From positions 1 to 50,164 of the forward strand of contig JAZRDG010000053.1 of assembly GCA_045660125.1 (NCBI GenBank): DNA of 50,164 nt, read 5' to 3'. A model generated the notes under the pieces. That model searched no databases and was not told the DNA's origin. It saw only the letters and a program-made list of their open reading frames with translations. The DNA is from Eubacteriales bacterium. Its GTDB lineage: Bacteria > Bacillota > Clostridia > Oscillospirales > CAG-272. Below are positions 2,949 to 34,137 of the stretch, piece by piece. A program made the translations under genes and the position numbers. The first letter of the stretch is position 1. Each line of letters opens with the position of its first letter.

Positions 2949-3178
2949 GCTTTTTTTCATTATAGCAAATATTTTACTAAAAAGCAAGCACTGCCTATAT
3001 TGGTTACGCGAAAAATGTCGCACGATTTTTTTGCGCGAAGTGCGTCACAAGGGGGCAAAGGCACGCAGGTGCGGTCAAAGCCGAGGGCTGTGTGCCGAAG
3101 TGCGTCGCACGAAATGCTTTGACAGTGTGCATAAGCCTTGCTATAATCAAAGCACATTCAAAAAAAGGAGGTACGTTC

Positions 3179-4033
3179 ATGAAAATCACATGGACAAAAA
3201 CAATGGCGTTTGCGCTGATCGGCTTGCTTTTGGTATCGGCAAGTGCGTGCAACAAAAACAAGGATGAAAGCCCCGACACAGGGACTGAACAGACAACCGA
3301 CATGCTGCAGGGCGGCTTTGATCAAAACCCGGGCAATCAGTACAATGACCCGAACAATCAAGGCAACCAAGGAAATCAGGGTAACCAAAACATTCAAACC
3401 CCGCCTACGGGCAACGAGCAGCAGACGCAGCCTGTCATCAACATTCCCGATCAAGGCAACCAAAACCAAAATCCCGGCAACACGGGTAATCAAGGCAACA
3501 ATGGTAACAGCACAGACAGCGCAGGTCTTACCTTTACCTCAAACGGTAACGGCACCTGCACCCTGACAAGCATTGGCACTTGCCGTGACATTTGCGTGGT
3601 CGTGCCCGCCACCAGCCCCTCGGGCGACAAGGTGACCGCCATTGGTGCGCAGGCGTTCTACAACTGCACCGCGATCACGGTGGTGCAAATTCCCGCAAGC
3701 GTGACCAACATCGGGCACTTGGCGTTTGGTGGCTGCACCAGCTTGGTTTACATCACGGTCAGCACGGGCAACTATTCCTACAAGGACATTGGCGGCGTGC
3801 TTTACACGATTGACGGCAAGACGCTTGTGCACTACCCTGCAGGCTCGGGCACGTCCTCGGTCAACATTCCCGCAAGTGTGACCAAGATCGAGGATATGGC
3901 GTTTTACGGCTGCAAGTCGCTTAAGAGCGTGCGCTACGGCGGCACGCAGGATGCTTGGTCGCGCGTGGCGGTAGGCTCGATGAACTACAGCCTCAACGCG
4001 GCATCGGTCACCTGTCAGGACTCGGGCAAATAA
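3179..4033 (+). CDS. lipoprotein with N/Q/G-rich linker and BspA-type leucine-rich repeats
   Basis: AAGGAGG RBS; lipobox SASAC; (NQG)n low complexity; repeats VTAIGAQAFYNCTAIT / VTNIGHLAFGGCTSL / VTKIEDMAFYGCKSL. Confidence 0.85.
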   Translation: MKITWTKTMAFALIGLLLVSASACNKNKDESPDTGTEQTTDMLQGGFDQNPGNQYNDPNNQGNQGNQGNQNIQTPPTGNEQQTQPVINIPDQGNQNQNPGNTGNQGNNGNSTDSAGLTFTSNGNGTCTLTSIGTCRDICVVVPATSPSGDKVTAIGAQAFYNCTAITVVQIPASVTNIGHLAFGGCTSLVYITVSTGNYSYKDIGGVLYTIDGKTLVHYPAGSGTSSVNIPASVTKIEDMAFYGCKSLKSVRYGGTQDAWSRVAVGSMNYSLNAASVTCQDSGK

Positions 4034-4036
4034 TGC

Positions 4037-4065
4037 TTGACAAAGCGAGGAGCGTGTGATATACT
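4037..4065 (+). promoter_or_regulatory. sigma-A promoter
   Basis: TTGACA-N17-TATACT with TG extension. Confidence 0.7.
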
Positions 4066-4101
4066 GAACGTATAAATCTTTGATACATAAGGAGATATCA
4101 C

Positions 4102-4458
4102 ATGTACGGAAAGAACGTTTGGATGATCCCCGACGGCTATATGAGCGACACGGTCAAGGGCGAATTTGTCAGCCACGAGGCTGTTTGCGTGCTCAATCTT
4201 TCGGGCAAGACCGCGCACATTGACCTGACCATTTATTTTGAAGATCAGGAGCCGCTGACCGGCTTGCACGCAGTTTGCGAGAACAACCGCACCAACCACA
4301 TCAGACTTGACAAGATGGTTGCCGACAACGGTCAACCCATTCCCCGTAACAAGCCCTACGCAATTTTGGTGGAGAGCGACCAGCCCATCGTGGCACAGGC
4401 GTCCAGACTGGACGTTTCCCAGCCCGAATATGCGCTGATGACGACTATTGCATATTGA
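4102..4458 (+). CDS. sensory rhodopsin transducer (ASRT) family protein
   Basis: GKxxWxIPDGY, SHEAVCVLN, IYFED, RTNHIRL, ESDQPIVAQASRLD, LMTTIAY. Confidence 0.88.
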   Translation: MYGKNVWMIPDGYMSDTVKGEFVSHEAVCVLNLSGKTAHIDLTIYFEDQEPLTGLHAVCENNRTNHIRLDKMVADNGQPIPRNKPYAILVESDQPIVAQASRLDVSQPEYALMTTIAY

Positions 4459-6725: not shown

Positions 6726-7610
6726 CTATATATCCTCTCCATCAAAATCGGGGGTGTACTTCGCGGTAGCCGACTCGCGCTGTTGCATGTAGCCCACAAA
6801 GCCCAGACGCTCGGCATGCTGCATGACCGAGTCGTATTCAAAGGTGGTCACGCGGCGGTGGAGATTGGTATACGGTGCATCGGTGGCAAATTCGGGGGTG
6901 TACTGACTCATCAGGCTCAGGCGGATATCCTGCACGGGCACGGTCTCGGCAAGGCGATCCAGCACGGCGAGTGAGTCCTTGCGGCAGCCCGGCAGCACCA
7001 AATGGCGCACCAGCACGCCGCGCGTCATGATTCCCTGTTCGTCAAATTGCACCGCCCCCGCAAGCTCGTACATTTTGGTAATGGCGCGCGCTGCGACATC
7101 GGGATAATCAGCTGCGCCTGCGTATCTGTGCGCGATCTCGGGATCGGCAAACTTGAAATCGGGCATCCAAACGTCCACGTATGGGGCAAGCAGTTCTATG
7201 ATCTCGGGCTTTTCGTAGCCGCCCGTGTTATATACGATGGGGATATGCAGCTGCGGCTTGAGTGCCTTCAGCAGCGGCACGAGCTGCGCGGCAAAGTGCG
7301 TGGGGGTGACCAGATTGATATTATGCGCGCCTGCCTCTTGCAGCGCAAGCATTTTTTGCATCAGTTCCACTGCGCTGATCTCTTTACCCTGTCCGCGGTG
7401 GCTGACGCGATAATTCTGACAAAACACGCAGCCGAGGTTACAGCCCGAGAAAAACACAGTACCCGATCCCTGCGTGCCGCTGATGCAGGGCTCTTCCCAC
7501 AGGTGCAGATCGGCACGCGCGATACGAAACTCGTTGCGCTGACCGCAATAGCCTGCATGTGTATCTCGGTTTGCGCCGCAGTTACGCGGACACGCCGTAC
7601 ATTTGCTCAT
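6726..7610 (-). CDS. radical SAM protein, PflX-like
   Basis: CTACPRNC, WEEPCISG, FSGCNLGCVFCQN (CxxxCxxC), NINLVTPTH, VRHLVLP. Confidence 0.9.
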   Translation of the reverse strand: MSKCTACPRNCGANRDTHAGYCGQRNEFRIARADLHLWEEPCISGTQGSGTVFFSGCNLGCVFCQNYRVSHRGQGKEISAVELMQKMLALQEAGAHNINLVTPTHFAAQLVPLLKALKPQLHIPIVYNTGGYEKPEIIELLAPYVDVWMPDFKFADPEIAHRYAGAADYPDVAARAITKMYELAGAVQFDEQGIMTRGVLVRHLVLPGCRKDSLAVLDRLAETVPVQDIRLSLMSQYTPEFATDAPYTNLHRRVTTFEYDSVMQHAERLGFVGYMQQRESATAKYTPDFDGEDI

Positions 7611-7737
7611 ATGCTCCCCTCCTTTTTTTCACCGTTTCTTACATTATACGAAAAAAAGCGCGCGCTGTCAAGCCAAGTGTTTACAAAACCGAAGGTTTGT
7701 GATATAATGGGCGTAACGAACGCAAGGAGGCACAAGT

Positions 7738-8271
7738 ATGCAGATTGCAGAACGAATTATCATCACGCCCAATCCCGTCGAGGATCTTTACAAAGTATTT
7801 TCAAACTACGGCTACCGCGTTGCCACGGCAGAATCCTGCACGGGCGGCTTTGTGGGCGGCGTGCTGACCGCCATGCCGGGCATCTCCTCGGTGTATCTGG
7901 GCGGCTTTGTGACCTATACCAACCAAATGAAGATCGACCTTTTGGGTGTGGATCCCGCAGCGATTGAGCAGTATACCGAGGTATCCGCACGCGTTGCCGA
8001 GCAGATGGCGCAAGGGGCGCGCGAGCGCACGGGTGCGGACGTTGCCGTGTCGCTGACAGGCATCGCAGGTCCCGGTGGCGGCAGCGAACAAACGCCCGTG
8101 GGCACGGTTTATATCGGCATCAGCTCCAAGGCGCACACCTATGCGGTGCGTTACTGCATGCCCTCTTATCTCCCAAGACACGAGATTCGCAGTCGTGCCG
8201 TACTGCTTGCTATCACGCTTGCGACACAAGAAGCGAAAAATTATCACACTTTCTGCGAAGAATTGAGATAA
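7738..8271 (+). CDS. cinA: CinA C-terminal / nicotinamide mononucleotide deamidase (PncC-like)
   Basis: ATAESCTGG, TGIAGPGGG, PVGTVYIG; upstream TTTACA-N17-TATAAT promoter. Confidence 0.88.
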   Translation: MQIAERIIITPNPVEDLYKVFSNYGYRVATAESCTGGFVGGVLTAMPGISSVYLGGFVTYTNQMKIDLLGVDPAAIEQYTEVSARVAEQMAQGARERTGADVAVSLTGIAGPGGGSEQTPVGTVYIGISSKAHTYAVRYCMPSYLPRHEIRSRAVLLAITLATQEAKNYHTFCEELR

Positions 8272-8356
8272 AACCCTTGATTTTTTTCATATCCTGTTGT
8301 AGAATATATAATTGAGATAATTTTTGTCCCATGATGGGAAAAGAAAGGCAATTTAC

Positions 8357-9433
8357 ATGGCAAAGTTCAAGAAAATTGGCGTACTCACCTCCGGTGGTGA
8401 CGCGCCCGGTATGAATGCGGCTGTCAGAGCCGTAACAAGAAAGGCTCTTGCTGAGGGCATTGAGGTTATTGGTATCAACGGCGGTTATGCAGGTCTGCTC
8501 AACGGCGATCTGACCCCCCTGACCTCCCACGCAGTTTCCAACATCGTAACGCGCGGCGGTACGATTCTGTACTCCTCTCGCTGCCCCGAGTTCAAGACTC
8601 CCGAGGGTATGGCAAAGGCTCTGCAAACCTGTAAGGATAACGATATTGACGCGATCGTGGCAATCGGCGGCGACGGTACCTACCGCGGTGCGACCGACCT
8701 GACCAACCACGGTATTCCCTCGATCGGCATTCCCGCAACCATTGACAACGACATTACCGCAACCGACCTGACCATCGGTTACGATACTGCTGTCAATACC
8801 CTGCTCTCCATGATCGACTACCTGCGCGACACCTGCGAATCCCACGCAAGATGCAACGTTGTTGAGGTAATGGGCAGAGATTGCGGCTTGGTTGCACTTT
8901 ACGCAGGCATTTGCACGGGTGCGGTTTCGATCGCGATTCCCGAAGTGCCCTTTAACGAAGAGGCTGCTATCAAGAAGATCGCAAACGTACGCGACATGGG
9001 CAAGAGAGGCATTATCGTAGTCTTCTCCGAGGGTATGCCCCAGGTAAACGGCAGAAAGTACAGCGAATACTTTGCCGAGAAGGTTGAGGCGCAGACCGGT
9101 ATTGAAACCAAGTTTGCTCGCGTTGGTCACATCATTCGCGGTGGTGGTCCTACCCTGCGTGACCGTATGACCGCAACCCAGATGGGTGTTGAGGCTGTCA
9201 ATCTCTTGCTGCAGGGCAAGAGCAACCGCGTTATGTGCGTGCTGGAAAACAAGATCACCAACGAGGACATCAACTTCGCGCTGGTGCTTGACCGCATGAA
9301 CAAGGGCAAGCTCAAGGATGGCGATCTGGACAGATTCAGCGCCGATGAGATTGCTTCTATGCGTGCGCGCTGCGCATACAGACAGGCAAAGATCGAAAAG
9401 CTTTACAAGATGGCTTACGAGATTTGCAACTAA
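8357..9433 (+). CDS. pfkA: ATP-dependent 6-phosphofructokinase
   Basis: LTSGGDAPGMNAA, GGDGT, TIDND, VEVMGR. Confidence 0.95.
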   Translation: MAKFKKIGVLTSGGDAPGMNAAVRAVTRKALAEGIEVIGINGGYAGLLNGDLTPLTSHAVSNIVTRGGTILYSSRCPEFKTPEGMAKALQTCKDNDIDAIVAIGGDGTYRGATDLTNHGIPSIGIPATIDNDITATDLTIGYDTAVNTLLSMIDYLRDTCESHARCNVVEVMGRDCGLVALYAGICTGAVSIAIPEVPFNEEAAIKKIANVRDMGKRGIIVVFSEGMPQVNGRKYSEYFAEKVEAQTGIETKFARVGHIIRGGGPTLRDRMTATQMGVEAVNLLLQGKSNRVMCVLENKITNEDINFALVLDRMNKGKLKDGDLDRFSADEIASMRARCAYRQAKIEKLYKMAYEICN

Positions 9434-9445
9434 TCGAAAAAAATC

Positions 9446-9476
9446 GGGACTCCGCTTTGGCGGAGTCCCTTTTTTT
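9446..9476 (+). terminator. intrinsic terminator
   Basis: gggactccg-loop-cggagtccc followed by a T run. Confidence 0.85.
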
Positions 9477-9479
9477 GCG

Positions 9480-10562
9480 TTAATTTCTGGGCAGATAGGT
9501 ATACAGCCCTGCTATACTTGTCGGAAATACGCCCTGATCTGCGGAATAGGATGCGTAAAGCTTGGCGCCTTCAGGGAAATCATTCAAAGCAGTAAAGCTG
9601 CCATCAGAGTTGGTTAACACGTAATCGGGAACAGACTGCACAGCAAAATTACTCTCTCCCATCAGCATCTTTTTGCCTGTAGCGGCATCCTCTATCACGG
9701 TCAGCACACATATGCGGGCATTTCTGACGTCCACGCGCTTGACTTCACCGTCCACGAACACAACGTTCGCGGGATAAGATTCTTGGGTCAAGCATTCTCC
9801 GGTAAAGCTCACGTATACCTCGTCGCCCGCGATCAAAGGCACGTCCACAAATACGGTGGCACTGTCCATGAGCAGCGTGGCTTTATTTTCTCTGATAACA
9901 CCGTAATCATAACTGGTTTGAAATGCAGTCTGCTGCGTTTCTCTGGGTGCGTAGGCATACGCTGCCAAGGGCGTTATGGCTTTGCCCGGCTGAAGCAGAT
10001 TACGGTAATAGGTGACGTAAAGCGCCTTGGTCGTATCGTAATCCGCAAGTGAACAAAAGCTTCCCTGCTCGTCAAGGATGACGTATTCACAAAGCTCACC
10101 CGAAATCTGATAGCCATTCTCAACAGGCTTCCAGCCGCCGTCATACTCAAGGCAAAGGATGCCCGCGTCAACGCGCGTAACGTCAAGAAAACCACCCTCG
10201 GGCAAAATCACCGTGCCCGGATAGGTTTCCTGCACCATGAGCTCTCCCATATAGGTCAAATGATATATGTCCCCCGGCACAAACACATCCAAATCCCAAA
10301 CGTCCTTGTCCAGAAACTCGGTCGTGCAGCTGTTGAGCAGCGGTGTTGCCAAGCCGGAGCGATGCATACCGTAATCCATACTCACTTGCATGCTTTGCGC
10401 ACTGAACTGCACAATATCCATGGGCGGTGTTGATAAAATAGGCGGATGCTCATGGATCACTTCACCAAGCAGCTCACTTACCAGCCCGTTGGCGCAGCCC
10501 GAAAACAGCGCAGCGCAGCAGATAAGCAGCGTAAACACAACAAACAAATTGCGTTTTTTCAC
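9480..10562 (-). CDS. lipoprotein with an internally duplicated domain (GD...QE(T/S)YP, YobA/DUF3221-like)
   Basis: GTG start; lipobox FSGC; two homologous halves visible by eye. Confidence 0.7.
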   Translation of the reverse strand: MKKRNLFVVFTLLICCAALFSGCANGLVSELLGEVIHEHPPILSTPPMDIVQFSAQSMQVSMDYGMHRSGLATPLLNSCTTEFLDKDVWDLDVFVPGDIYHLTYMGELMVQETYPGTVILPEGGFLDVTRVDAGILCLEYDGGWKPVENGYQISGELCEYVILDEQGSFCSLADYDTTKALYVTYYRNLLQPGKAITPLAAYAYAPRETQQTAFQTSYDYGVIRENKATLLMDSATVFVDVPLIAGDEVYVSFTGECLTQESYPANVVFVDGEVKRVDVRNARICVLTVIEDAATGKKMLMGESNFAVQSVPDYVLTNSDGSFTALNDFPEGAKLYASYSADQGVFPTSIAGLYTYLPRN

Positions 10563-27616: not shown

Positions 27617-28126
27617 TTACAGTCTGCCAACAAACGCCGCAATACGCGCAGCCGTTTGCGCAACCGTCTCGTTCGTGTTGTCGATATGCAGTGCAAATTT
27701 GCCTGCGTTTTGCAAAAACCAAGCGTTGTACGCAATTTGCGCGGCAATAAACTCCTCGCTGCCGCACATGCGCTCAGGGGGTCTTTCCAAGAGCCTTGCG
27801 CGCACCGCCTCCGGCGAGCAGGTCATGGCGATCAGCGCAGTAGAGCCAATGCCATCGGGCAAGCTCATTTTGCTATAAAAATCAATCGGGCTTAGGCAGG
27901 TGGTAAAGATCAAATGCTGATCCCCCACTCTTCTGATAGCCTCTTCAAGCCCGTCCTGAATGTAGCCAAACTCATGGTCGGTGCCTGCGTAATCCCACCA
28001 GTTCAGACCCATCTCATCGCTGCCCATGCAAACAAAGCCATCGAGCAGATCGAGCTCGCGCAAGGCATCCGTCACCGCAGATTTTCCCACGCCGCACGCA
28101 GCGGATATGATAACAAGCTTTTTCAT
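27617..28126 (-). CDS. P-loop nucleoside/nucleotide kinase-like protein
   Basis: IISAACGVGKS Walker A; R.RL..R lid motif; IDNT. Confidence 0.8.
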   Translation of the reverse strand: MKKLVIISAACGVGKSAVTDALRELDLLDGFVCMGSDEMGLNWWDYAGTDHEFGYIQDGLEEAIRRVGDQHLIFTTCLSPIDFYSKMSLPDGIGSTALIAMTCSPEAVRARLLERPPERMCGSEEFIAAQIAYNAWFLQNAGKFALHIDNTNETVAQTAARIAAFVGRL

Positions 28127-28156
28127 AGCGAGCCTCCAAGTTTGGTTTTACAATTT

Positions 28157-28199
28157 CATTATACCACAGAATAAGAGAAATGTAAAGAGGGCGTGGGGG
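28157..28199 (-). promoter_or_regulatory. sigma-A promoter module, copy 2
   Basis: Minus strand cccccacgccctcTTTACAtttc...tggTATAATg (N17); near-identical flanks to 32634-32677. Confidence 0.75.
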
Positions 28200-28249
28200 T
28201 GTTTGGAAATTGACCTCCTTGATCGCCCGCAATTTCACACAATTTGCGC

Positions 28250-28432
28250 GTAGGGAGGTGGCTTGCTGCCGCCGCGCTGCCCCAAGATCGTTTGGGCGGC
28301 CGCTCAATTCGGAAAACCAATCCCCCCTTTTTCGGTAGGGGTCGGCGCCCATCGACACCCGTCAAACGAAGGCGGCAGGAGCAAGCCCCTGCCCTACAAA
28401 ACACACGCGGGCGATTCGTGAATCGCCCCTAC
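28250..28432. repeat. cluster of GTAG-type REP sequences
   Basis: GTAGGG-hairpin units at 28250 and 28335; inverted hairpin-CCCTAC units ending at 28397 and 28432. Confidence 0.75.
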
Positions 28433-28440
28433 GACCATAT

Positions 28441-28468
28441 AAAAAAGCCCTGCATAGCAGAGCTTTTT
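28441..28468 (-). terminator. intrinsic terminator (copy of 29293-29319)
   Basis: aaaaaagccctgc-ata-gcagagcttttt. Confidence 0.8.
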
Positions 28469-28510
28469 ATATGTTGCACCAAAATCACACCAACATTCAA
28501 CGCTGTTCTG

Positions 28511-28529
28511 CTCGACAAATTGGAATTTG
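28511..28529 (-). repeat. gene-boundary palindromic motif, copy 1
   Basis: Minus strand CAAATTCCAATTTGTCGAG, 1 nt after the TAG stop. Confidence 0.7.
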
Positions 28530-28530
28530 A

Positions 28531-29184
28531 CTACCTTTTCTTGTATATCACAAGTTCAGGATTCTCTCCGTTTGCTTCATATGTGCATACAAGAAGAAAA
28601 TCCATATTGGCGACAATTCCGTAGCACTTTGTTTGACCCTCAAGTTGACTACCGAGATAGGTCTGCTTATAGTCAAGAAATTTCACTTTTTCTCCGTTTG
28701 GGAGTGTGTATTCTATATTGACAAATTCACCGGGCAGCACGTTCAGATTCTCAACCTTGGGCAATCCTTCGATATGCAAAAGTGTGTTAAATTCGTTTAT
28801 CAGCTGCTCTTTGAATTCTTCGAGCTTTTCTTTTCCGCCAATTTCGGCATATCGCTTCCAGATATCAAGGGTGTATTCACCGTCGGCATAGCACCATTTG
28901 CAGTATTCCTCATTGAAATTGCCGTCGGTTTCTTTGCTGATATTATAGTCCTCGAGAGGCATACCGCAGCATTCGCAAATGAGTTCTCTCGGAGAACCGA
29001 GGAGCGTATTGATCGACACGTCAAACAATTTTGAAAGAAGCTTGAGCGTATCTATATTCGGTATCGTTTCACCTGTTTCCCAACGGGAAACCGCCTGACG
29101 AGTAACGAACACCTTTTCTGCGAGTTCCTCTTGCGAAAGTCCTTTTTTTGTTCTTAATTCGTAGATTACATCTTTCGTTTCCAT
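28531..29184 (-). CDS. XRE HTH regulator with zinc ribbon and C-terminal domain
   Basis: LSQEELAEKVFVTRQAVSRWETG; CECCGMP...YCKWC; own promoter TTGTCA..TATAAT with palindrome agcaac-ttgct-gttgct at 29243-29259. Confidence 0.88.
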   Translation of the reverse strand: METKDVIYELRTKKGLSQEELAEKVFVTRQAVSRWETGETIPNIDTLKLLSKLFDVSINTLLGSPRELICECCGMPLEDYNISKETDGNFNEEYCKWCYADGEYTLDIWKRYAEIGGKEKLEEFKEQLINEFNTLLHIEGLPKVENLNVLPGEFVNIEYTLPNGEKVKFLDYKQTYLGSQLEGQTKCYGIVANMDFLLVCTYEANGENPELVIYKKR

Positions 29185-29292
29185 AAAATCACCACCTTCG
29201 TTAGTTGTGATTGTATTATACCACGGGCTGTCAGCATTGACAAGCAACTTGCTGTTGCTGTCAGCTCTGCATTTGACCCCCATCCGATAAGC

Positions 29293-29319
29293 AAAAAGCC
29301 CTGCTTTGGCAGAGCTTTT
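29293..29319 (-). terminator. intrinsic terminator (copy of 28441-28468)
   Basis: aaaaagccctgc-tttg-gcagagctttt. Confidence 0.8.
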
Positions 29320-29338
29320 CAGGAGCTGCGCCAATCGG

Positions 29339-29659
29339 TCAGCTTTCGCTTTCTTTTTTTATAGAGAGTGCGGGATACGGCTGCTTTGCATCGGGCATAA
29401 ACGCGGTTTCAACCGTAATCACGTCTCCAACTGCCAGATCCGCAGGCACGTTCAGCGATTTTCCCGTAATACTGAAGCAGATCTCCGTGCCTTGATCGTC
29501 AATGGGCATGATCGTAACGGTCGTGTCAGTAAGCTCCGTGACCTTCCCCGTGTATATTTCGTGCCCGAGAAGCGGTGCGGGTCCGGGCGCAGGTACGGCA
29601 CAAGCAGCCAAACCCAAAACGCAAACCAAGATAATCATGCATGCTATCAACTTTTTCAT
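29339..29659 (-). CDS. small lipoprotein, OB-fold/YobA-like
   Basis: Lipobox LAAC; YTGKVTE...VGDVITV...YPA. Confidence 0.7.
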   Translation of the reverse strand: MKKLIACMIILVCVLGLAACAVPAPGPAPLLGHEIYTGKVTELTDTTVTIMPIDDQGTEICFSITGKSLNVPADLAVGDVITVETAFMPDAKQPYPALSIKKESES

Positions 29660-29673
29660 ACTCGTCCTCCCTC

Positions 29674-29692
29674 TTTGTCATAACCGGATTTG
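29674..29692 (-). repeat. gene-boundary motif, copy 2 (degenerate)
   Basis: Minus strand CAAATCCGGTTATGACAAA directly after TGA. Confidence 0.55.
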
Positions 29693-30046
29693 TCATTCGG
29701 TCAGGTTTCCTGTCTCAATCAAAACACCTAATGCCTTTTGAGGTACGTCGTCCTTGGAGCCGGATGCAATTTTTATCATTAAATAGGCTCTCGTAGATTC
29801 CGGATAGCTCTCCGCAAATGCCGACTTATGTATAATGAGCAGCTTGTCGCCCGTTTGATAGTCTGTGTCCTTACCGTATGCAAGTCCGACAGGTCTGTCG
29901 TCATATACCATATACACACGATTATTATCGCTGATAATACATCTCGCAACCGTAATTTGATTGCCGCTGAAATATACGCCCGCAACGCCCAATAAAAGGA
30001 TCGACACGATGATTATAACAGGAATGAACCATTTTTTATTTTTCAC
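29693..30046 (-). CDS. small membrane-anchored protein with GD...AESYP motif (YobA/DUF3221-like)
   Basis: GTG start, N-terminal TM helix, TGDKLLI...FAESYP. Confidence 0.7.
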   Translation of the reverse strand: MKNKKWFIPVIIIVSILLLGVAGVYFSGNQITVARCIISDNNRVYMVYDDRPVGLAYGKDTDYQTGDKLLIIHKSAFAESYPESTRAYLMIKIASGSKDDVPQKALGVLIETGNLTE

Positions 30047-30080
30047 GGTAAACTGCCCTCCATTTTATAAAAGTTGTTAT

Positions 30081-30122
30081 CCCTTCACACTATAAGACGG
30101 CAAAAATGGTCGGAAGGTTACA
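30081..30122 (-). promoter_or_regulatory. ECF-type promoter
   Basis: Minus strand TGTAAC-N17-CGTCTTAT. Confidence 0.6.
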
Positions 30123-30150
30123 TCAAATGAAAAAATTTACCTTGATATAC

Positions 30151-31041
30151 TTATTCGACCTTGTATATTTCATATTTCACGTTGTCCGGATCGGATTTAT
30201 CCACGATACAATGGTAGAAAGCCCCTGTTTCCTCGTCGATATATACCTGTACCGCTCTCCCCGTTTTGTGATCGGTACCATAAAATTTCAACGGCTTCCC
30301 ATCAACAAAAGGAAAGGTAATTCCCCAGCCAAAGCTGCTTCTCATTCTTTTGGCAATGAAGATTTCCTTGCACCGCTCGTTACGCCATTTGGTGATTTCT
30401 TTGCCCGTCAACCCCTCGGGGGTGTTTTGAATGACGTGCTCTATGATGTATTTTTCGGTGTTGGAATTGACAAATCTTGCATCAACGTTGCATTTATTCG
30501 TAAGATAATAGTAATCGGACAGATACCAATCGTGCCCTTTTTCCGACGCCAATTCCGTATGACCTATTTTTTCGGCAGAATCCTTATACAGTTTCATTTG
30601 GTGTCCGTAGAAAATCTTACAATACAAAGCATTATAATGCGCAATGCCGTTCAGATAACCCGTTTCAAAGGGCTGTATATTTTCATGATAAAATGCGTCA
30701 ATCGTATTTTCAAATGCATCTGCATCTATCTCGAAAAAGTCCCAATGATAGCCGTCCGCCGTTTTGTAAAACAACTTATTCGCCGTGTAGGTATCTATCA
30801 GCATCGCATCATCCAAAATGCTCTTTGTGATTTTGCCGATTTCGGGATGGCATTCTTTTATGATCATGCTTAAATACATTTCAGCTCCGCCGTTGTAAAC
30901 GGCTTGCTTCAAGATGATGATCGAATCCTTTAACTCCAAATAAAACAATTTGGAACCGCAGTTCTTAAAATTGTATTTTCCTAAAGAATGCTTTAATAAT
31001 TTGCCTAACGATTCTTTATCCGTACTATGGTTTGTTTTCAC
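30151..31041 (-). CDS. hypothetical protein (AT-rich)
   Basis: GTG start after GAGGTG RBS, 296 aa, no family recognised. Confidence 0.7.
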   Translation of the reverse strand: MKTNHSTDKESLGKLLKHSLGKYNFKNCGSKLFYLELKDSIIILKQAVYNGGAEMYLSMIIKECHPEIGKITKSILDDAMLIDTYTANKLFYKTADGYHWDFFEIDADAFENTIDAFYHENIQPFETGYLNGIAHYNALYCKIFYGHQMKLYKDSAEKIGHTELASEKGHDWYLSDYYYLTNKCNVDARFVNSNTEKYIIEHVIQNTPEGLTGKEITKWRNERCKEIFIAKRMRSSFGWGITFPFVDGKPLKFYGTDHKTGRAVQVYIDEETGAFYHCIVDKSDPDNVKYEIYKVE

Positions 31042-31048
31042 GTAACAC

Positions 31049-31067
31049 CTCGTCAAATTGGGATTTG
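31049..31067 (-). repeat. gene-boundary motif, copy 3
   Basis: Minus strand CAAATCCCAATTTGACGAG, 3 nt after TAA; its end supplies the next RBS. Confidence 0.7.
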
Positions 31068-31070
31068 CAT

Positions 31071-31736
31071 TTAGATAGTCTTTAAATTGTTATCTAAAAA
31101 TTCAACGATTTCGGAAACAGGTGGCGATGCATCTCCGCGCTGCTTATCAAGCGGATGCGCATTTCTATATGCATCAAGCTTGGATTTCAAAGCATCCCGA
31201 TCATACGTTGATCCCAAGTTGCTTTCTTCAACTCTGACGAAATTTTCGCCATGGTCAAAGCTTATGTAATAATCTTCAAAACCGGGATGTATTCGAATTA
31301 CAATATTATCTCTGGTAAGAAGATGAACTTTATGATCAGACTTATATTGAAACCCTTTTGTTATCAGCTTTTTAAAAGATCTTTTACCGGGTATACCAAA
31401 GCAACTAAAAGGTAATAAAACAATCAGAGCAATAAAACCGATTGGTAATACCAAAACAGTAGCCACTCCCATTATGATCCTATTGATGAAAGCACCTATT
31501 TTACCCCAAAGGTTCTTCCCTTTAAAAGATTCGTCAACGTCAATAAAATATATTTCAATCAGAATTCTGGATACCATCAATACCGCAGCAGGAATCGCCA
31601 ACAATATAATTGCCCACCAATCCATCGGTCCTGTAGGTTGCTTATTGAGTACACAATAATATAACGTCAAGAATAAAGCAATTAAAATCGTTGTGACTCC
31701 ACTGATCACTAATAAACCCTTGATTTTTCTTTCCAT
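31071..31736 (-). CDS. hypothetical membrane protein (~3 TM)
   Basis: GGTGGTG RBS, MERKIKG start, hydrophobic segments. Confidence 0.7.
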   Translation of the reverse strand: MERKIKGLLVISGVTTILIALFLTLYYCVLNKQPTGPMDWWAIILLAIPAAVLMVSRILIEIYFIDVDESFKGKNLWGKIGAFINRIIMGVATVLVLPIGFIALIVLLPFSCFGIPGKRSFKKLITKGFQYKSDHKVHLLTRDNIVIRIHPGFEDYYISFDHGENFVRVEESNLGSTYDRDALKSKLDAYRNAHPLDKQRGDASPPVSEIVEFLDNNLKTI

Positions 31737-31750
31737 TGTTTCACCACCAT

Positions 31751-31769
31751 ATCTGCTAATTGGAAGTTG
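31751..31769 (-). repeat. gene-boundary motif, copy 4
   Basis: Minus strand CAACTTCCAATTAGCAGAT, 10 nt after TGA. Confidence 0.55.
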
Positions 31770-31779
31770 TTCTGACCGG

Positions 31780-32022
31780 TCATGATGCATCATTCAAAAT
31801 TCGGATACCTTCCGCAACTCCAAACTTATACGTATCCATAAATATTCCTGCTTCCTTGATAATGATAGCAGATACCGAACAAAGGCAGGAAAAAGTAATG
31901 AGTATATAAAAAGCAACCGCACTTTGTTCTTTCATGAAAAGTCCACCCACAAATAAAGATAAGGCTAATACGAGCAACAAAGCAAAAATAACGAAAGTGA
32001 TAACATATTTTTGAGTTGTCAT
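31780..32022 (-). CDS. small 2-TM hypothetical protein
   Basis: GAAAGGGA RBS, 80 aa. Confidence 0.6.
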   Translation of the reverse strand: MTTQKYVITFVIFALLLVLALSLFVGGLFMKEQSAVAFYILITFSCLCSVSAIIIKEAGIFMDTYKFGVAEGIRILNDAS

Positions 32023-32040
32023 ACAGATCCCTTTCTATAT

Positions 32041-32592
32041 TTATTCTGTGAAATCATGTTGTTTGGTATTATTATCTAATAGTGACACGAGTTTGTTTTT
32101 ATATTCTTTTAGCTGTATTTCATCATCCGCAAATGTTTTTTTGATCAATTCATACACCATTTGTGCAGTAGGAATTCCTCTTACGTACAAAAAGGTTGGA
32201 TCAGTAATTTCATAATGAGAAATCACGTCAATAAGGTAATCCACGATTTCAACTGCGTCATGATTTCTGTTGACTTCGCAAAGGATCAATCCATAATAGT
32301 ATCTTACAAAGCAACCGCTCAACTCCATCGGTTCTTTTTTAAGATTGGGAGAATAGCACTTCAGCTTTTCATATAATTTGTTTTCAACCTCGGTTTTTCC
32401 GCAATATACCGCACACTGAAACAAATTAAACGTATTGGTTGCATTGCTGTTTTTGTGATATAATTTCTCAAATATCGGATATGCTTCTGCATGTTTTCCA
32501 TCTTTTGATAAAATCAATGCTTGCTGCAATTCCGTATCGGGTTGTGCTTTATCAGACTTGCGTTTGTCTTTCAACCAACCAAACAATCCCAC
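32041..32592 (-). CDS. hypothetical TPR-like protein
   Basis: GTG start after GGAGG; MGLFGWLK N-terminus; helical A..G.H.EAY.IFEK pattern. Confidence 0.7.
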   Translation of the reverse strand: MGLFGWLKDKRKSDKAQPDTELQQALILSKDGKHAEAYPIFEKLYHKNSNATNTFNLFQCAVYCGKTEVENKLYEKLKCYSPNLKKEPMELSGCFVRYYYGLILCEVNRNHDAVEIVDYLIDVISHYEITDPTFLYVRGIPTAQMVYELIKKTFADDEIQLKEYKNKLVSLLDNNTKQHDFTE

Positions 32593-32602
32593 AGTTCGTA
32601 TC

Positions 32603-32622
32603 CTCCGTCAAATTCAAGTTGA
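32603..32622 (-). repeat. gene-boundary motif, copy 5 (between promoter and first gene)
   Basis: Minus strand TCAACTTGAATTTGACGGAG, 12 nt after the -10 box, running into the GGAGG RBS. Confidence 0.6.
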
Positions 32623-32633
32623 TCCGTCTGTTC

Positions 32634-32677
32634 CATTATACCATAAAATTCCCGAAATGTAAAGAGGACGGCGGGGG
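32634..32677 (-). promoter_or_regulatory. sigma-A promoter module, copy 1 (array leader)
   Basis: Minus strand cccccgccgtcctcTTTACAtttc...tggTATAATg (N17). Confidence 0.75.
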
Positions 32678-32752
32678 CTTTACTGATTCCGGGCTTAATG
32701 AAATAATTTTTCTTTGCTTGATAGGTTTTTACATATATTCGACGTTTTTCTC

Positions 32753-32781
32753 TTGACGAAAGACAGATTTGCGGGTATAAT
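32753..32781 (+). promoter_or_regulatory. sigma-A promoter
   Basis: TTGACG-N17-TATAAT. Confidence 0.7.
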
Positions 32782-32822
32782 AATAGCATGATTACCAATA
32801 AATTCCATTTTGGAGTGTGAAT

Positions 32823-33881
32823 ATGTCAAACAAAGCAGAACATTATTCCGAACATATACATCCTGCCTTTGCGGGCTTTCGCCGTGAAAATCTGCTGTCC
32901 TGTTTTGGCGCTCTTTGCGAAAATGCGACCGTGACGCGCGCAGAGCTTGCCGCTGCGACCGAGCTTTCGATTATGACGACGGGCAAGATTGCGGACGCCA
33001 TGATCGAGAGTGGTGCGCTTGTGGAGCAAAAGCTGCCCTGCGCAAGCGCGGGGCGACGTCCGGGCACGTTGGGGTTTGCCGCAAAGCCCATTTTCCTGAT
33101 CCTTGATCTGGGCAGCCGCCGCTTTTGCGCGCATCTGCTCTCCCCTGCCTTGACTTACAAGGAGATCTGCGTGCATGATTACAACGATATTTTCCCGTTT
33201 GACGATAACCTGCTCATTTTCCTCAACGCCGTGCGCAGAGGGTGCAACGTTTCCAAGGATGCCTTGCCCTATCTTGCCGTGATCTGTGCGCCCGAGGACG
33301 ACAAGCGGCAATGCATTACGCGCTCGCTGCCCGTCTCACCGCGCTCTCGCCAGCATATGCTTGACTTTATTGCCAAGATCCTGCGGCGCGAATGCGATCT
33401 GGTGACGGATGAGGTCACAGCCGCACAACAGTATTTCAATTCCATGTCCGAGTACAAGAACATCGGCTGCGGCGCTTACGTGTGCCTGTCGGACATGACC
33501 TATGCCGCAGTTTGGATGCGCGGCAACCTGCTCAGCCCTCGCATTTGCAAGATCGGGGATCTGATCATGTCGGATCGCCGCCGCATCGCGGACGTGCTGG
33601 CAGACGCGCTTTGCACTGAGGATGCCACAGCACCCACCGCATATGCCATCAGCACGCTCGAAACCTTTTTCACGCCCGATTGCATCGTGCTGGAATCGGG
33701 ACGCTTTCGCATCGACGAGGCGTTTTTGGAGGGCGTTTATGCCGAGCTTGCGCGACTTGCTCCCGATCACGAACGCATTATCCCCTTGAAAACCTCGGAC
33801 GCAAAGCCGAGCATTGCGATCTGTGGCTGCGCCGCGGAATTGAGAAGAATGTGGTTTTATGATTTGACGGGGTTGGGATAA
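32823..33881 (+). CDS. divergent ROK-family transcriptional regulator
   Basis: TRAELAAATELSIMT HTH, AGRRP, LILDLG; size and layout of a ROK repressor, sugar-binding motifs degenerate. Confidence 0.75.
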   Translation: MSNKAEHYSEHIHPAFAGFRRENLLSCFGALCENATVTRAELAAATELSIMTTGKIADAMIESGALVEQKLPCASAGRRPGTLGFAAKPIFLILDLGSRRFCAHLLSPALTYKEICVHDYNDIFPFDDNLLIFLNAVRRGCNVSKDALPYLAVICAPEDDKRQCITRSLPVSPRSRQHMLDFIAKILRRECDLVTDEVTAAQQYFNSMSEYKNIGCGAYVCLSDMTYAAVWMRGNLLSPRICKIGDLIMSDRRRIADVLADALCTEDATAPTAYAISTLETFFTPDCIVLESGRFRIDEAFLEGVYAELARLAPDHERIIPLKTSDAKPSIAICGCAAELRRMWFYDLTGLG

Positions 33882-34062: not shown

Positions 34063-34137
34063 TGGCACCCCCAACGGGAATCGAACCCATAACTAACCCT
34101 TAGGAGGGGTTTATTATATCCATTTAACTATGGAGGC
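34063..34137 (-). tRNA. tRNA-Arg (anticodon CCT)
   Basis: GCCTCCATAGTTAAATGGATA...AACCC-CTCCTAA-GGGTT...GGTTCGATTCC...TGGGGGTGCCA; 75 nt cloverleaf with encoded CCA. Confidence 0.95.

Follow-up and report, generated by a model that had tools for sequence, protein, structure and literature searches.

The array and its host genome

The window, a 50,164-nt stretch of contig JAZRDG010000053.1 from a Eubacteriales bacterium (assembly GCA_045660125.1), carries on its minus strand an array of small cargo genes with a short palindrome at several gene boundaries. Coordinates refer to the whole stretch; G-numbers (G007, G010 and so on) denote genomes of relatives, and L-numbers denote loci, that is, contigs or neighborhoods from genomes of the same family and from metagenome collections. 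The array begins with a promoter, TTTACA-N17-TGGTATAAT (32664–32635, minus strand), which is followed by seven open reading frames (ORFs) on the same strand (32592–28531), much as an earlier note on this DNA, made from the sequence by itself, had described. That note had also called the region AT-rich, and the GC content of positions 30001–33000 is indeed 36.5–39%, compared with 53.4% in the host genome, which comprises 2.39 Mb in 161 contigs and is 80.6% complete. Among the seven genes, a Pfam family is recognized only for gene 7 (HTH_3 with Zn_ribbon_2); gene 1 is TPR-like, and a weak DUF4304/Imm25-like match of gene 4 (score 0.88) is counted as a lead only. The array extends past the range first described, as a P-loop kinase gene (27617–28126, Pfam AAA_18) follows the remnant of a further unit. 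The features of the region are collected in Table 1, where A and B are the two forms of the palindrome, found after stop codons and after promoters, respectively, and "box" is a conserved string ahead of the promoter.

Table 1. Features of the array and its flank in the window (RBS, ribosome-binding site; PWM, position weight matrix)
Feature	Position	Strand	Remarks
tRNA-Arg (CCT)	34063..34137	-	1.4 kb upstream of the array promoter
Box 5' of the unit I promoter		-	cut down to GTAAAG; alignment with G007 by eye
Sigma-70-type promoter of unit I, CTTTACATTT..TGGTATAAT	32635..32664	-	-35 side homologous to the family promoter (G007 alignment by eye)
Site 1, palindrome B, promoter-side type TCAACTTGAATTTG, then ACGGAGGA (RBS)	32609..32622	-	PWM 19.5 bits
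Cargo gene 1, 183 aa, TPR-like	32041..32592	-	cargo in 7 loci
Cargo gene 2, 80 aa, small membrane protein	31780..32022	-	
Site 2 of the earlier note	31751..31769	-	5.9 bits, not above chance; identical in G007
Cargo gene 3, 221 aa, membrane protein, no Pfam family	31071..31736	-	
Site 3, fused: stop-side left half CAAATCCC with gene-side right half AATTTG-ACGAGG (RBS)	31054..31067	-	17.7 bits
Cargo gene 4, 296 aa, no family	30151..31041	-	other gene in its place in G007
Short inter-unit spacer remnant, no palindrome	30054..30139	-	homologous to G007 and G010 spacers
Cargo gene 5, 117 aa, membrane-anchored	29693..30046	-	not at this place in G007/G010
Site 4 of the earlier note	29674..29692	-	-2.3 bits, not above chance
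Cargo gene 6, 106 aa, lipoprotein-like	29339..29659	-	terminator follows at ~29292-29320
Gene 7, XRE HTH and Zn-ribbon regulator, own promoter	28531..29184	-	recurrent cargo in arrays
Site 5, palindrome A (28516-28529), TCGAGCAGAA and truncated TTGGTG repeat block	28471..28529	-	PWM 24.0 bits
Intrinsic terminator of the unit backbone	28441..28470	-	
Next unit: box remnant, promoter, left half of B (AAACTTG)	28137..28215	-	G007 backbone alignment

Palindromic sites in the window

The earlier note had placed a related motif at five gene boundaries of the array, and all five strings are present where it had located them. With up to three mismatches allowed, the 19-mer consensus has two matches in the window, at sites 3 and 5, where 0.03 are expected, and none of 100 shuffles reached two. 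A 14-nt position weight matrix (PWM), trained on 246 sites of other genomes, was scanned over all 4,775,096 positions of the window's genome. Three positions score as high as site 5 (24.0 bits), ten equal or better site 1 (19.5 bits), and 20 equal or better site 3 (17.7 bits), whereas sites 2 (5.9 bits) and 4 (-2.3 bits) fall below a threshold of 8 bits that is itself reached by 212 positions. Sites 1, 3 and 5 are real, while sites 2 and 4 are indistinguishable from chance; site 2 is at most an eroded copy.

These figures bear directly on the simplest account of the motif, in which chance and shared ancestry have left coincidental AT-rich strings in an AT-rich island. Sites 2 and 4, which score below the 212 positions genome-wide that reach at least 8 bits, fit such an account, as do the many weak matches obtained in AT-rich intergenic DNA. 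Sites 1, 3 and 5, in contrast, belong to the ~20 best of 4.78 million positions, so that the suspicion of a motif no commoner than chance does not hold for them, and they share their contexts with hundreds of copies in other genomes. For these three sites the PWM scan together with the typing of contexts rules chance out, and as an explanation of the palindrome it retains a negligible probability.

Three junctions had been reported to lack a convincing copy. That at ~32030 has no site in the window and is site-free in G007 too, that at ~30140 holds a decayed short spacer, and near ~29300 a possible half-site, the vestige of a right half, can be made out by eye at ~29270–29285 (unscored). The statement that the motif is absent between housekeeping genes is not quite right, as a 19.8-bit copy (TAAATTCCATTTTG) lies at 32799–32812 (plus strand), between the -10 box and the RBS of a divergent ROK-like gene (32817–33881), the same placement as that of palindrome B in the arrays.

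A conserved module and its distribution

Among genomes of the same genus the 4.2-kb region is a mosaic, single genes match alone elsewhere, and short noncoding pieces recur widely. In G007, genes 1–3 are present at 96% identity and genes 6–7 at 89%, and a different gene replaces genes 4 and 5; gene content thus differs between near-identical relatives, in line with the gain and loss among strains that the earlier note had proposed to look for.

What recurs in the noncoding DNA is a module of constant order. The full unit begins with the 3' end of an integrase gene, which is followed by the box (GGGCGGTTCAATTTGTAAAGAA), the promoter and, 12 nt on, palindrome B (TAAACTTGAATTTG) with ACG and an RBS. 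After the stop codon of the cargo come palindrome A (CAAATTCCAATTTG) and TCGAGCAGAA, two or, as in the intact element, three TTGGTGCAA repeats with a period of 11 nt, about eight CACGATAT repeats with a period of ~10 nt, 13 nt copied from the rpsI 3' end, a short hairpin, an intrinsic terminator and often REP-like hairpins. These last, GC-rich and of the GTAGGGGCGATTCACGAATCGCCC type, occur throughout the genomes as well as inside unit backbones, at 28240–28430 of the window and on many family contigs, and they explain the q253-313 matches obtained in a search with a 447-nt stretch of backbone.

That backbone is matched in 34 of the 121 family genomes sampled, representing 30 of 97 genera, and an exact 23-mer of the repeat block occurs, with the same order of features, on at least 120 contigs. 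Almost all of the contigs listed are from gut metagenome-assembled genomes (MAGs) assigned to Oscillospiraceae, Eubacteriales, Clostridia or Acutalibacteraceae, and the carriers among the matches listed are all uncultured MAGs. Between genera the noncoding backbone is 90–97% identical, compared with 70–75% for rplM and 75–82% for rpsI; conservation so far above that of these two neighboring genes speaks for a module that has recently spread horizontally through the microbiomes of animal guts.

Searches beyond these arrays provided little more. Rfam returned no family for L011 and L012 (E up to 1), plasmid and phage collections gave no match to the 447-nt backbone, the 23-mer had none in IMG/VR, and no CACGATAT repeats occur outside the arrays in five genomes. 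A 19-mer of two CACGATAT units did match four related phage contigs in IMG/VR (L159–L162), which share a TCACGATAT repeat pair near a promoter, in L161 ~100 nt past the end of a tyrosine integrase gene; with only two repeats each, these matches are treated as chance-level and are probably unrelated. Odder is an exact copy of the 23-mer (TTGGTGCAAATTTGGTGCAACAC) in an alphaproteobacterium, Thermohalobaculum xanthum (L089, NZ_JAEHHL010000004.1, reverse strand, ~1090–1135), a cross-phylum identity with a tRNA gene ~60 nt ahead of it and, ~70 nt beyond it, the gene for a 352-aa tyrosine integrase; this is a typical position for the arm of an attachment (att) site. A small ORF running over the repeats in 64 loci is spurious, having no RBS and continuing through the terminator. 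A literature search found no earlier description of these arrays, which is not proof that none exists.

The rpsI 3' end as a candidate recombination core

The 13-mer at the end of the repeat block, CTC[C/G/A]AAGAGATAA, is the end of rpsI (..QFSKR, stop) and lies exactly 18 nt after 79 of 82 distinct CACGATAT clusters. Arrays, with their units in tandem, start directly behind rpsI: among the 46 loci whose upstream sequence spans 1.5 kb or more, 38 have the rpsI end upstream of the first array feature. In four relatives that have no array, rpsI ends in QFSKR and is followed by unrelated DNA, with L156 and L158 carrying the identical 13-nt end. In the window genome, the order rplM-rpsI-core-box-promoter-B is found at the broken end of contig C17, and contig C151 holds a further unit, with a GNAT gene; the window itself lacks the core, any CACGATAT cluster and any remnant of the integrase, and the assembled genome yielded none either.

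The 3' end of a target gene, copied at each unit border and accompanied by periodic direct repeats, is what marks insertion by an integrase. The best-supported candidate for the recombination core is the 13-nt rpsI-end copy with its repeats, and not the palindrome. In streptococci, tyrosine integrases of integrative and mobilizable elements (IMEs) and of integrative and conjugative elements are documented to target the rpsI 3' end, with tandem accretion and decayed elements (PMC5357655).

The array of the window genome (G000) is spread over at least three contigs: C17 (24818–24921), C151 (432–1156) and the window (~32690). Relative to G007, the stretch that links the GNAT unit with the TPR unit has been replaced, with one breakpoint 12 nt past palindrome A (C151) and the other inside the box (window), at which the upstream flank of the window array is broken relative to G007; this could be a rearrangement or an assembly break.

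The integrase and its elements

As the earlier note stated, the window encodes no recombinase. The only tyrosine recombinases in its genome are two Xer-like ones on other contigs, with no resolvase, and the PF00589/PF00239 matches in G000, G011, G048, G097 and G142 all fall on contigs other than the array contigs. No recombinase emerged from clustering of array-flanking ORFs, among ten large ORFs near arrays, or in a Pfam tally of 114 near-array ORFs of at least 230 aa, where 25 families are listed of 128 matched and single recombinase matches could lie outside those listed. Only a home-made hidden Markov model of tyrosine recombinases, applied to 1488 ORFs of the loci, brought to light C-terminal remnants of an integrase, 85 and 110 aa long (..HLGHCNTEITSNIYVHIF..IEHDLL, stop), situated between the core or terminator and the box. 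Several other units still show its last codons, and the majority of array units retain no more than these, or nothing at all. Across 401 genomes of the family, nine places are 86–97% identical to the remnant, all in open frames of at most 97 aa, and intact relatives of the integrase reach only 58–64% identity.

Metagenomes provide the intact enzyme, in the form of four contigs whose 387-aa integrase matches the remnant at 100% identity across 60 residues. In L214 an SF3-helicase-like gene, ArdA and an 84-aa ORF precede the integrase (3020–4183), which is followed by the box (4191), B (4264), cargo, A (5043), the repeat block (5091, 5130) and the core (5225). The order integrase-box-B is found in L215 and L216, and integrase-B in L213. 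A complete element of 8.7 kb, bounded by the rpsI end and a core copy, is present in L207 (genome G259): the rpsI end, a TTGGTGCAA repeat, several ORFs, ArdA and the integrase (Phage_integrase, Phage_int_SAM_3 and Phage_int_M) are followed by B, three cargo genes, A, repeats and the core copy. The cargo of this element (7522–9626) consists of genes for a protein of the beta-lactamase family, a GrpB protein and a P-loop kinase. In L209, integrase, promoter, cargo, repeats and core succeed one another with no palindromes, and other elements have integrase and core with no cargo. Two of these cargo-less rpsI-core elements (L210, 6570–6760; L211, 3050–3240) encode a 379-aa integrase, and three TGATGTCC repeats directly after its stop codon form a different set of putative arm sites. 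ArdA and the SF3-helicase-like gene are carried, and no relaxase was identified in the element.

A tyrosine integrase is thus present at the element border in L207, L209 and L213–L216, and one of this type is found neither in the window nor in its genome. The suggestion of an undescribed cassette-capture system acting in trans is changed by these loci, in which relatives encode an integrase in cis, just upstream of the promoter.

Palindromes and cargo boundaries

Across the array neighborhoods there are 265 distinct copies of the palindrome, a 14-bp dyad with the consensus (C/T)AAA(C/T)T-NN-AATTTG, and for most of them both halves can be assigned to a type. Palindrome B combines a promoter-side left half (TAAACT TG) with a gene-side right half (AATTTG ACG and RBS) at 74 sites, whose position is that of site 1 in the window, and palindrome A a stop-side left half (CAAATT CC) with an arm-side right half (AATTTG TCGAGC) at 106. 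A fused type between two genes, with stop-side left and gene-side right halves as in site 3, occurs at 20 distinct sites elsewhere, and five sites join a promoter-side left half to an arm-side right half with no cargo between. The stretch around site 5 has copies 86–100% identical in relatives; compared with G007, it has lost ~170 nt containing the CACGATAT repeats and the rpsI-end core.

The proximity to stop codons reported for the window extends to the family, with a stop codon from -20 to +60 nt at 102 of 140 distinct stop-side sites and modal gaps of +1 (24 sites), 0 (16) and -3 nt (12, the stop being within the site). Cargo is modular as well. A nucleotidyltransferase gene follows the promoter in L047, L123, L137 and L017 and another gene in L060, L079 and L026, and a P-loop kinase gene shows the same two contexts in L020 and L079, respectively; in both pairs of contexts the sequences switch exactly at the center of the palindrome (core index 7). 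The cargo is mostly unrelated, as had been claimed, with 102 proteins falling into 76 clusters. Site-delimited cargo is, then, correct as anatomy.

Ten cargo proteins scanned against Pfam comprise four GNAT acetyltransferases, one nucleotidyltransferase, two AAA_18/33 kinase-like proteins, one PAP2 protein and two with no family; a beta-lactamase-family protein, GrpB and a nitroreductase-like protein occur as other cargo. One unit carries a restriction-modification fusion of 1286 aa (N6_Mtase, Methylase_S and HSDR_N_2; L067, 829–4686). XRE-family genes, of several subfamilies, encode the most frequent proteins in the loci (46 copies, 42 loci). Gene 7 itself, with its XRE and Zn-ribbon domains, was considered as a constant core gene and rejected, as its cluster mixes at least five XRE subfamilies and contains only ~7 members of the gene 7 type.

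The distance between A and B forms a series, from the full backbone of ~450 nt through forms of ~100 nt (A-repeat-B in L027, joined at a CGATA microhomology) and ~45 nt (A and B in tandem in L133, L149 and L207) to the fused 14-mer. A census of 28 short gene-gene junctions gave 14 strong sites, one weak and 13 with none; it is unreliable, as at least three of the rows scored as none arose from reading a TTG of the site itself as a start codon.

Possible roles of the palindrome

The palindrome may be a secondary recombination site, an operator or an outer arm site. The prevalence of XRE genes brings the second of these to the fore: the palindrome would be an operator or architectural binding site, for example for array-borne XRE regulators, with B at about +6 to +19 repressing each promoter, A serving as a looping site or an outer edge of att, and cargo boundaries coinciding with it only as backbone conservation ends there. 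B does lie 12 nt past the -10 box in every unit, a similar site occupies the leader of the ROK-like gene, and the extended form is a good dyad (CGACAAATTCCAATTTGTCG). Yet the 74 promoter-side B sites are outnumbered by 106 A-type sites that follow stop codons and 20 fused ones that separate genes of a single operon, so that the motif is not found mainly at promoters; moreover, no single regulator family is constant, and a site that touches the stop codons of unrelated genes is not something an operator predicts. Such a role appears improbable.

A recombinational role accords with the switch at the palindrome center. Here the palindromes would be true secondary recombination sites, between which the adjacent integrase, or an enzyme in trans, swaps RBS-plus-ORF cassettes, with B acting as an attI-like and the stop-side sites as attC-like partners, while integration at rpsI would carry the platform as a whole. 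The two contexts in which the nucleotidyltransferase and the P-loop kinase genes each occur fit such an exchange, as do the occurrence of all four combinations of half-sites (74, 106, 20 and 5), the abutment of sites to stop codons at 0–1 nt, and a layout of integrase, promoter, site and cargo that mirrors intI-Pc-attI. The left half and center of A and B also resemble, by eye, the left side of the att core (AAAACTCCAA compared with CAAATTCCAA/TAAACTTGAA). Identities are uncoupled along some units: L017 and L123 are 79% identical in cargo and 96% in downstream backbone, and L022 and L123 are 98% identical upstream and 78% in cargo.

Several of these features may have other explanations, however. 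Gene conversion among tandem backbones could uncouple identities, and imprecise A-to-B deletions, of which the CGATA joint in L027 and the tandems in L133, L149 and L207 are instances, give similar junctions. The centers of the sites differ, being CC in A and TG in B, and of the two sides of the gene 5 insertion only one shows a site-like string. For G007 and the window, which form the sole close pair available, the breakpoint by site 3 lies ~20 nt past the site, inside the next gene, and not in the motif as breakpoints had been expected to be. No circles were seen in contigs of four sequencing runs. Cassette exchange at the palindromes is possible but doubtful. The stronger proposition, in which the upstream phage-type integrase uses the 14-bp palindromes as functional secondary core sites and the system is a Firmicute counterpart of the integron, is likewise doubtful; if true, a single enzyme would place the platform at rpsI and also exchange RBS-plus-ORF cassettes at a minimal site in contact with the stop codon, and would need no folded site of the attC kind. 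"Cassette array" holds as a description of architecture; "integron" finds no support, and recombination at the palindrome is hypothetical.

Proposed accretion and decay at rpsI

The favored reading, to which a probability of about 0.7 is assigned, takes the region for the decayed part of an array in which remnants of small integrative elements have accreted in tandem at the 3' end of rpsI. The integrase would insert a circular element at this end, with the rpsI copy as crossover core and the periodic repeats, from their arrangement, as putative arm-type binding sites. Repeated insertion would stack elements in tandem, deletions would remove the integrase and other element genes to leave promoter-cargo-terminator units, and later A-to-B deletions would fuse neighboring cargo genes so that only a hybrid palindrome stays between them. 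A deletion series between palindromes can, as judged from the forms compared above, explain the gene-to-gene junctions. In the window, site 1 would represent B, site 3 an A/B fusion and site 5 an A with a truncated arm, and 30054–30139 would be a decayed spacer. Because the integrase, the CACGATAT repeats and the att core have been lost, the window copy is probably immobile and fixed.

A number of observations weigh against accretion at rpsI, or are left unaccounted for by it. In eight of the 46 loci no rpsI lies upstream within the available DNA, and the upstream flank of the array in the window consists of the ROK-like gene and tRNA-Arg, not rpsI. The precise trimming of unrelated cargo ORFs to RBS and stop codon is unexplained by the model, which gives no role for the palindromes; because the sister element L209 has cargo and no palindromes, they are not needed for integration. 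Binding of the integrase to the repeats is putative. Finally, no excision or circular form was seen in contigs of the four sequencing runs, the best of which contained 0.16 of the sampled words; the joints found have sides of at most 28 nt and are unusable.

Two such joints, 28527>29641 and 28529>32601, were rejected as evidence of excision, having sides of 21 and 20 nt in near-palindromic sites. Loose ends at 28529–28531 and 28474 only show that other genes, or a longer repeat block, abut site 5 in other organisms.

Comparison with known systems

If accretion and decay of minimal integrative elements are indeed at work, they would have given many uncultured Clostridia of the gut chromosomal arrays whose accessory genes each have a promoter of their own, and the system would offer a defined integrase, att site and cargo slot. 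It bears as well on the origin of ORF-precise cassettes, a question still open for integrons.

Integrons are the most obvious point of reference. As in an integron, an integrase stands beside a promoter that is directly followed by a site (in the window, promoter 32664–32635 and site 1 32609–32622), and the cargo is small, co-oriented and mostly unrelated, has ends that touch a recombination-site-like motif, and includes acetyltransferases, nucleotidyltransferases and kinases. Integron attC sites are imperfect palindromes of 60–140 bp with RYYYAAC...GTTRRRY, whereas the motif here is a 14-bp dyad with neither attC nor RYYYAAC/GTTRRRY. The integron logic of the earlier note does not survive these differences: no attC-like sites are present, and the enzyme of the relatives is, as far as tested, a phage-type integrase (Phage_integrase, Phage_int_SAM_3 and Phage_int_M) encoded co-directionally with the cargo. 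Most units, moreover, have their own promoter and terminator, and growth is best explained by whole-element insertion at rpsI. To our knowledge, integron-like gene collections are essentially unknown in Firmicutes.

In the pdif modules of Acinetobacter plasmids, short sites likewise bracket single accessory genes and the enzyme acts in trans. There, XerC/XerD sites of 28 bp are arranged as inverted pairs; in the present arrays, for which no dedicated test was made, none of the Xer type was recognized.

The rAID-1 arrays of Bacteroidales are similar in general form only, being located in gut hosts and having skewed GC content, small accessory-gene arrays, a conserved tyrosine recombinase and repetitive intergenic sequence described as "reminiscent of integrons" (10.1101/471110). 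They belong to another phylum, have a recombinase of the XerD family and carry immunity genes (10.1101/471110). The cargo here consists mainly of small-molecule-modifying enzymes, regulators and membrane proteins, with the weak Imm-like lead for gene 4 alone, and in the near-array searches no recombinase heads the arrays.

The closest parallel is found in the streptococcal IMEs at rpsI, which share a tyrosine integrase, the rpsI 3' end as target, a direct repeat of the gene end at the borders, tandem stacking with integrase-less decayed elements, and resistance-like cargo (PMC5357655). Unlike them, the surviving units here are ~1 kb in size (promoter, one cargo ORF and terminator), their backbone is 90–97% conserved across genera, and the cargo slot is bracketed by a 14-bp palindrome. 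The hosts differ too, being uncultured gut Oscillospiraceae and other Clostridia, and the element has ArdA and an SF3-helicase-like gene with no relaxase identified. Cis-mobilizable elements are reportedly the subject of work by Pavlovic in 2004 and Bellanger in 2011. By analogy with these systems, the arrays appear to work like IMEs tandemly accreted at rpsI and to resemble an integron in layout.

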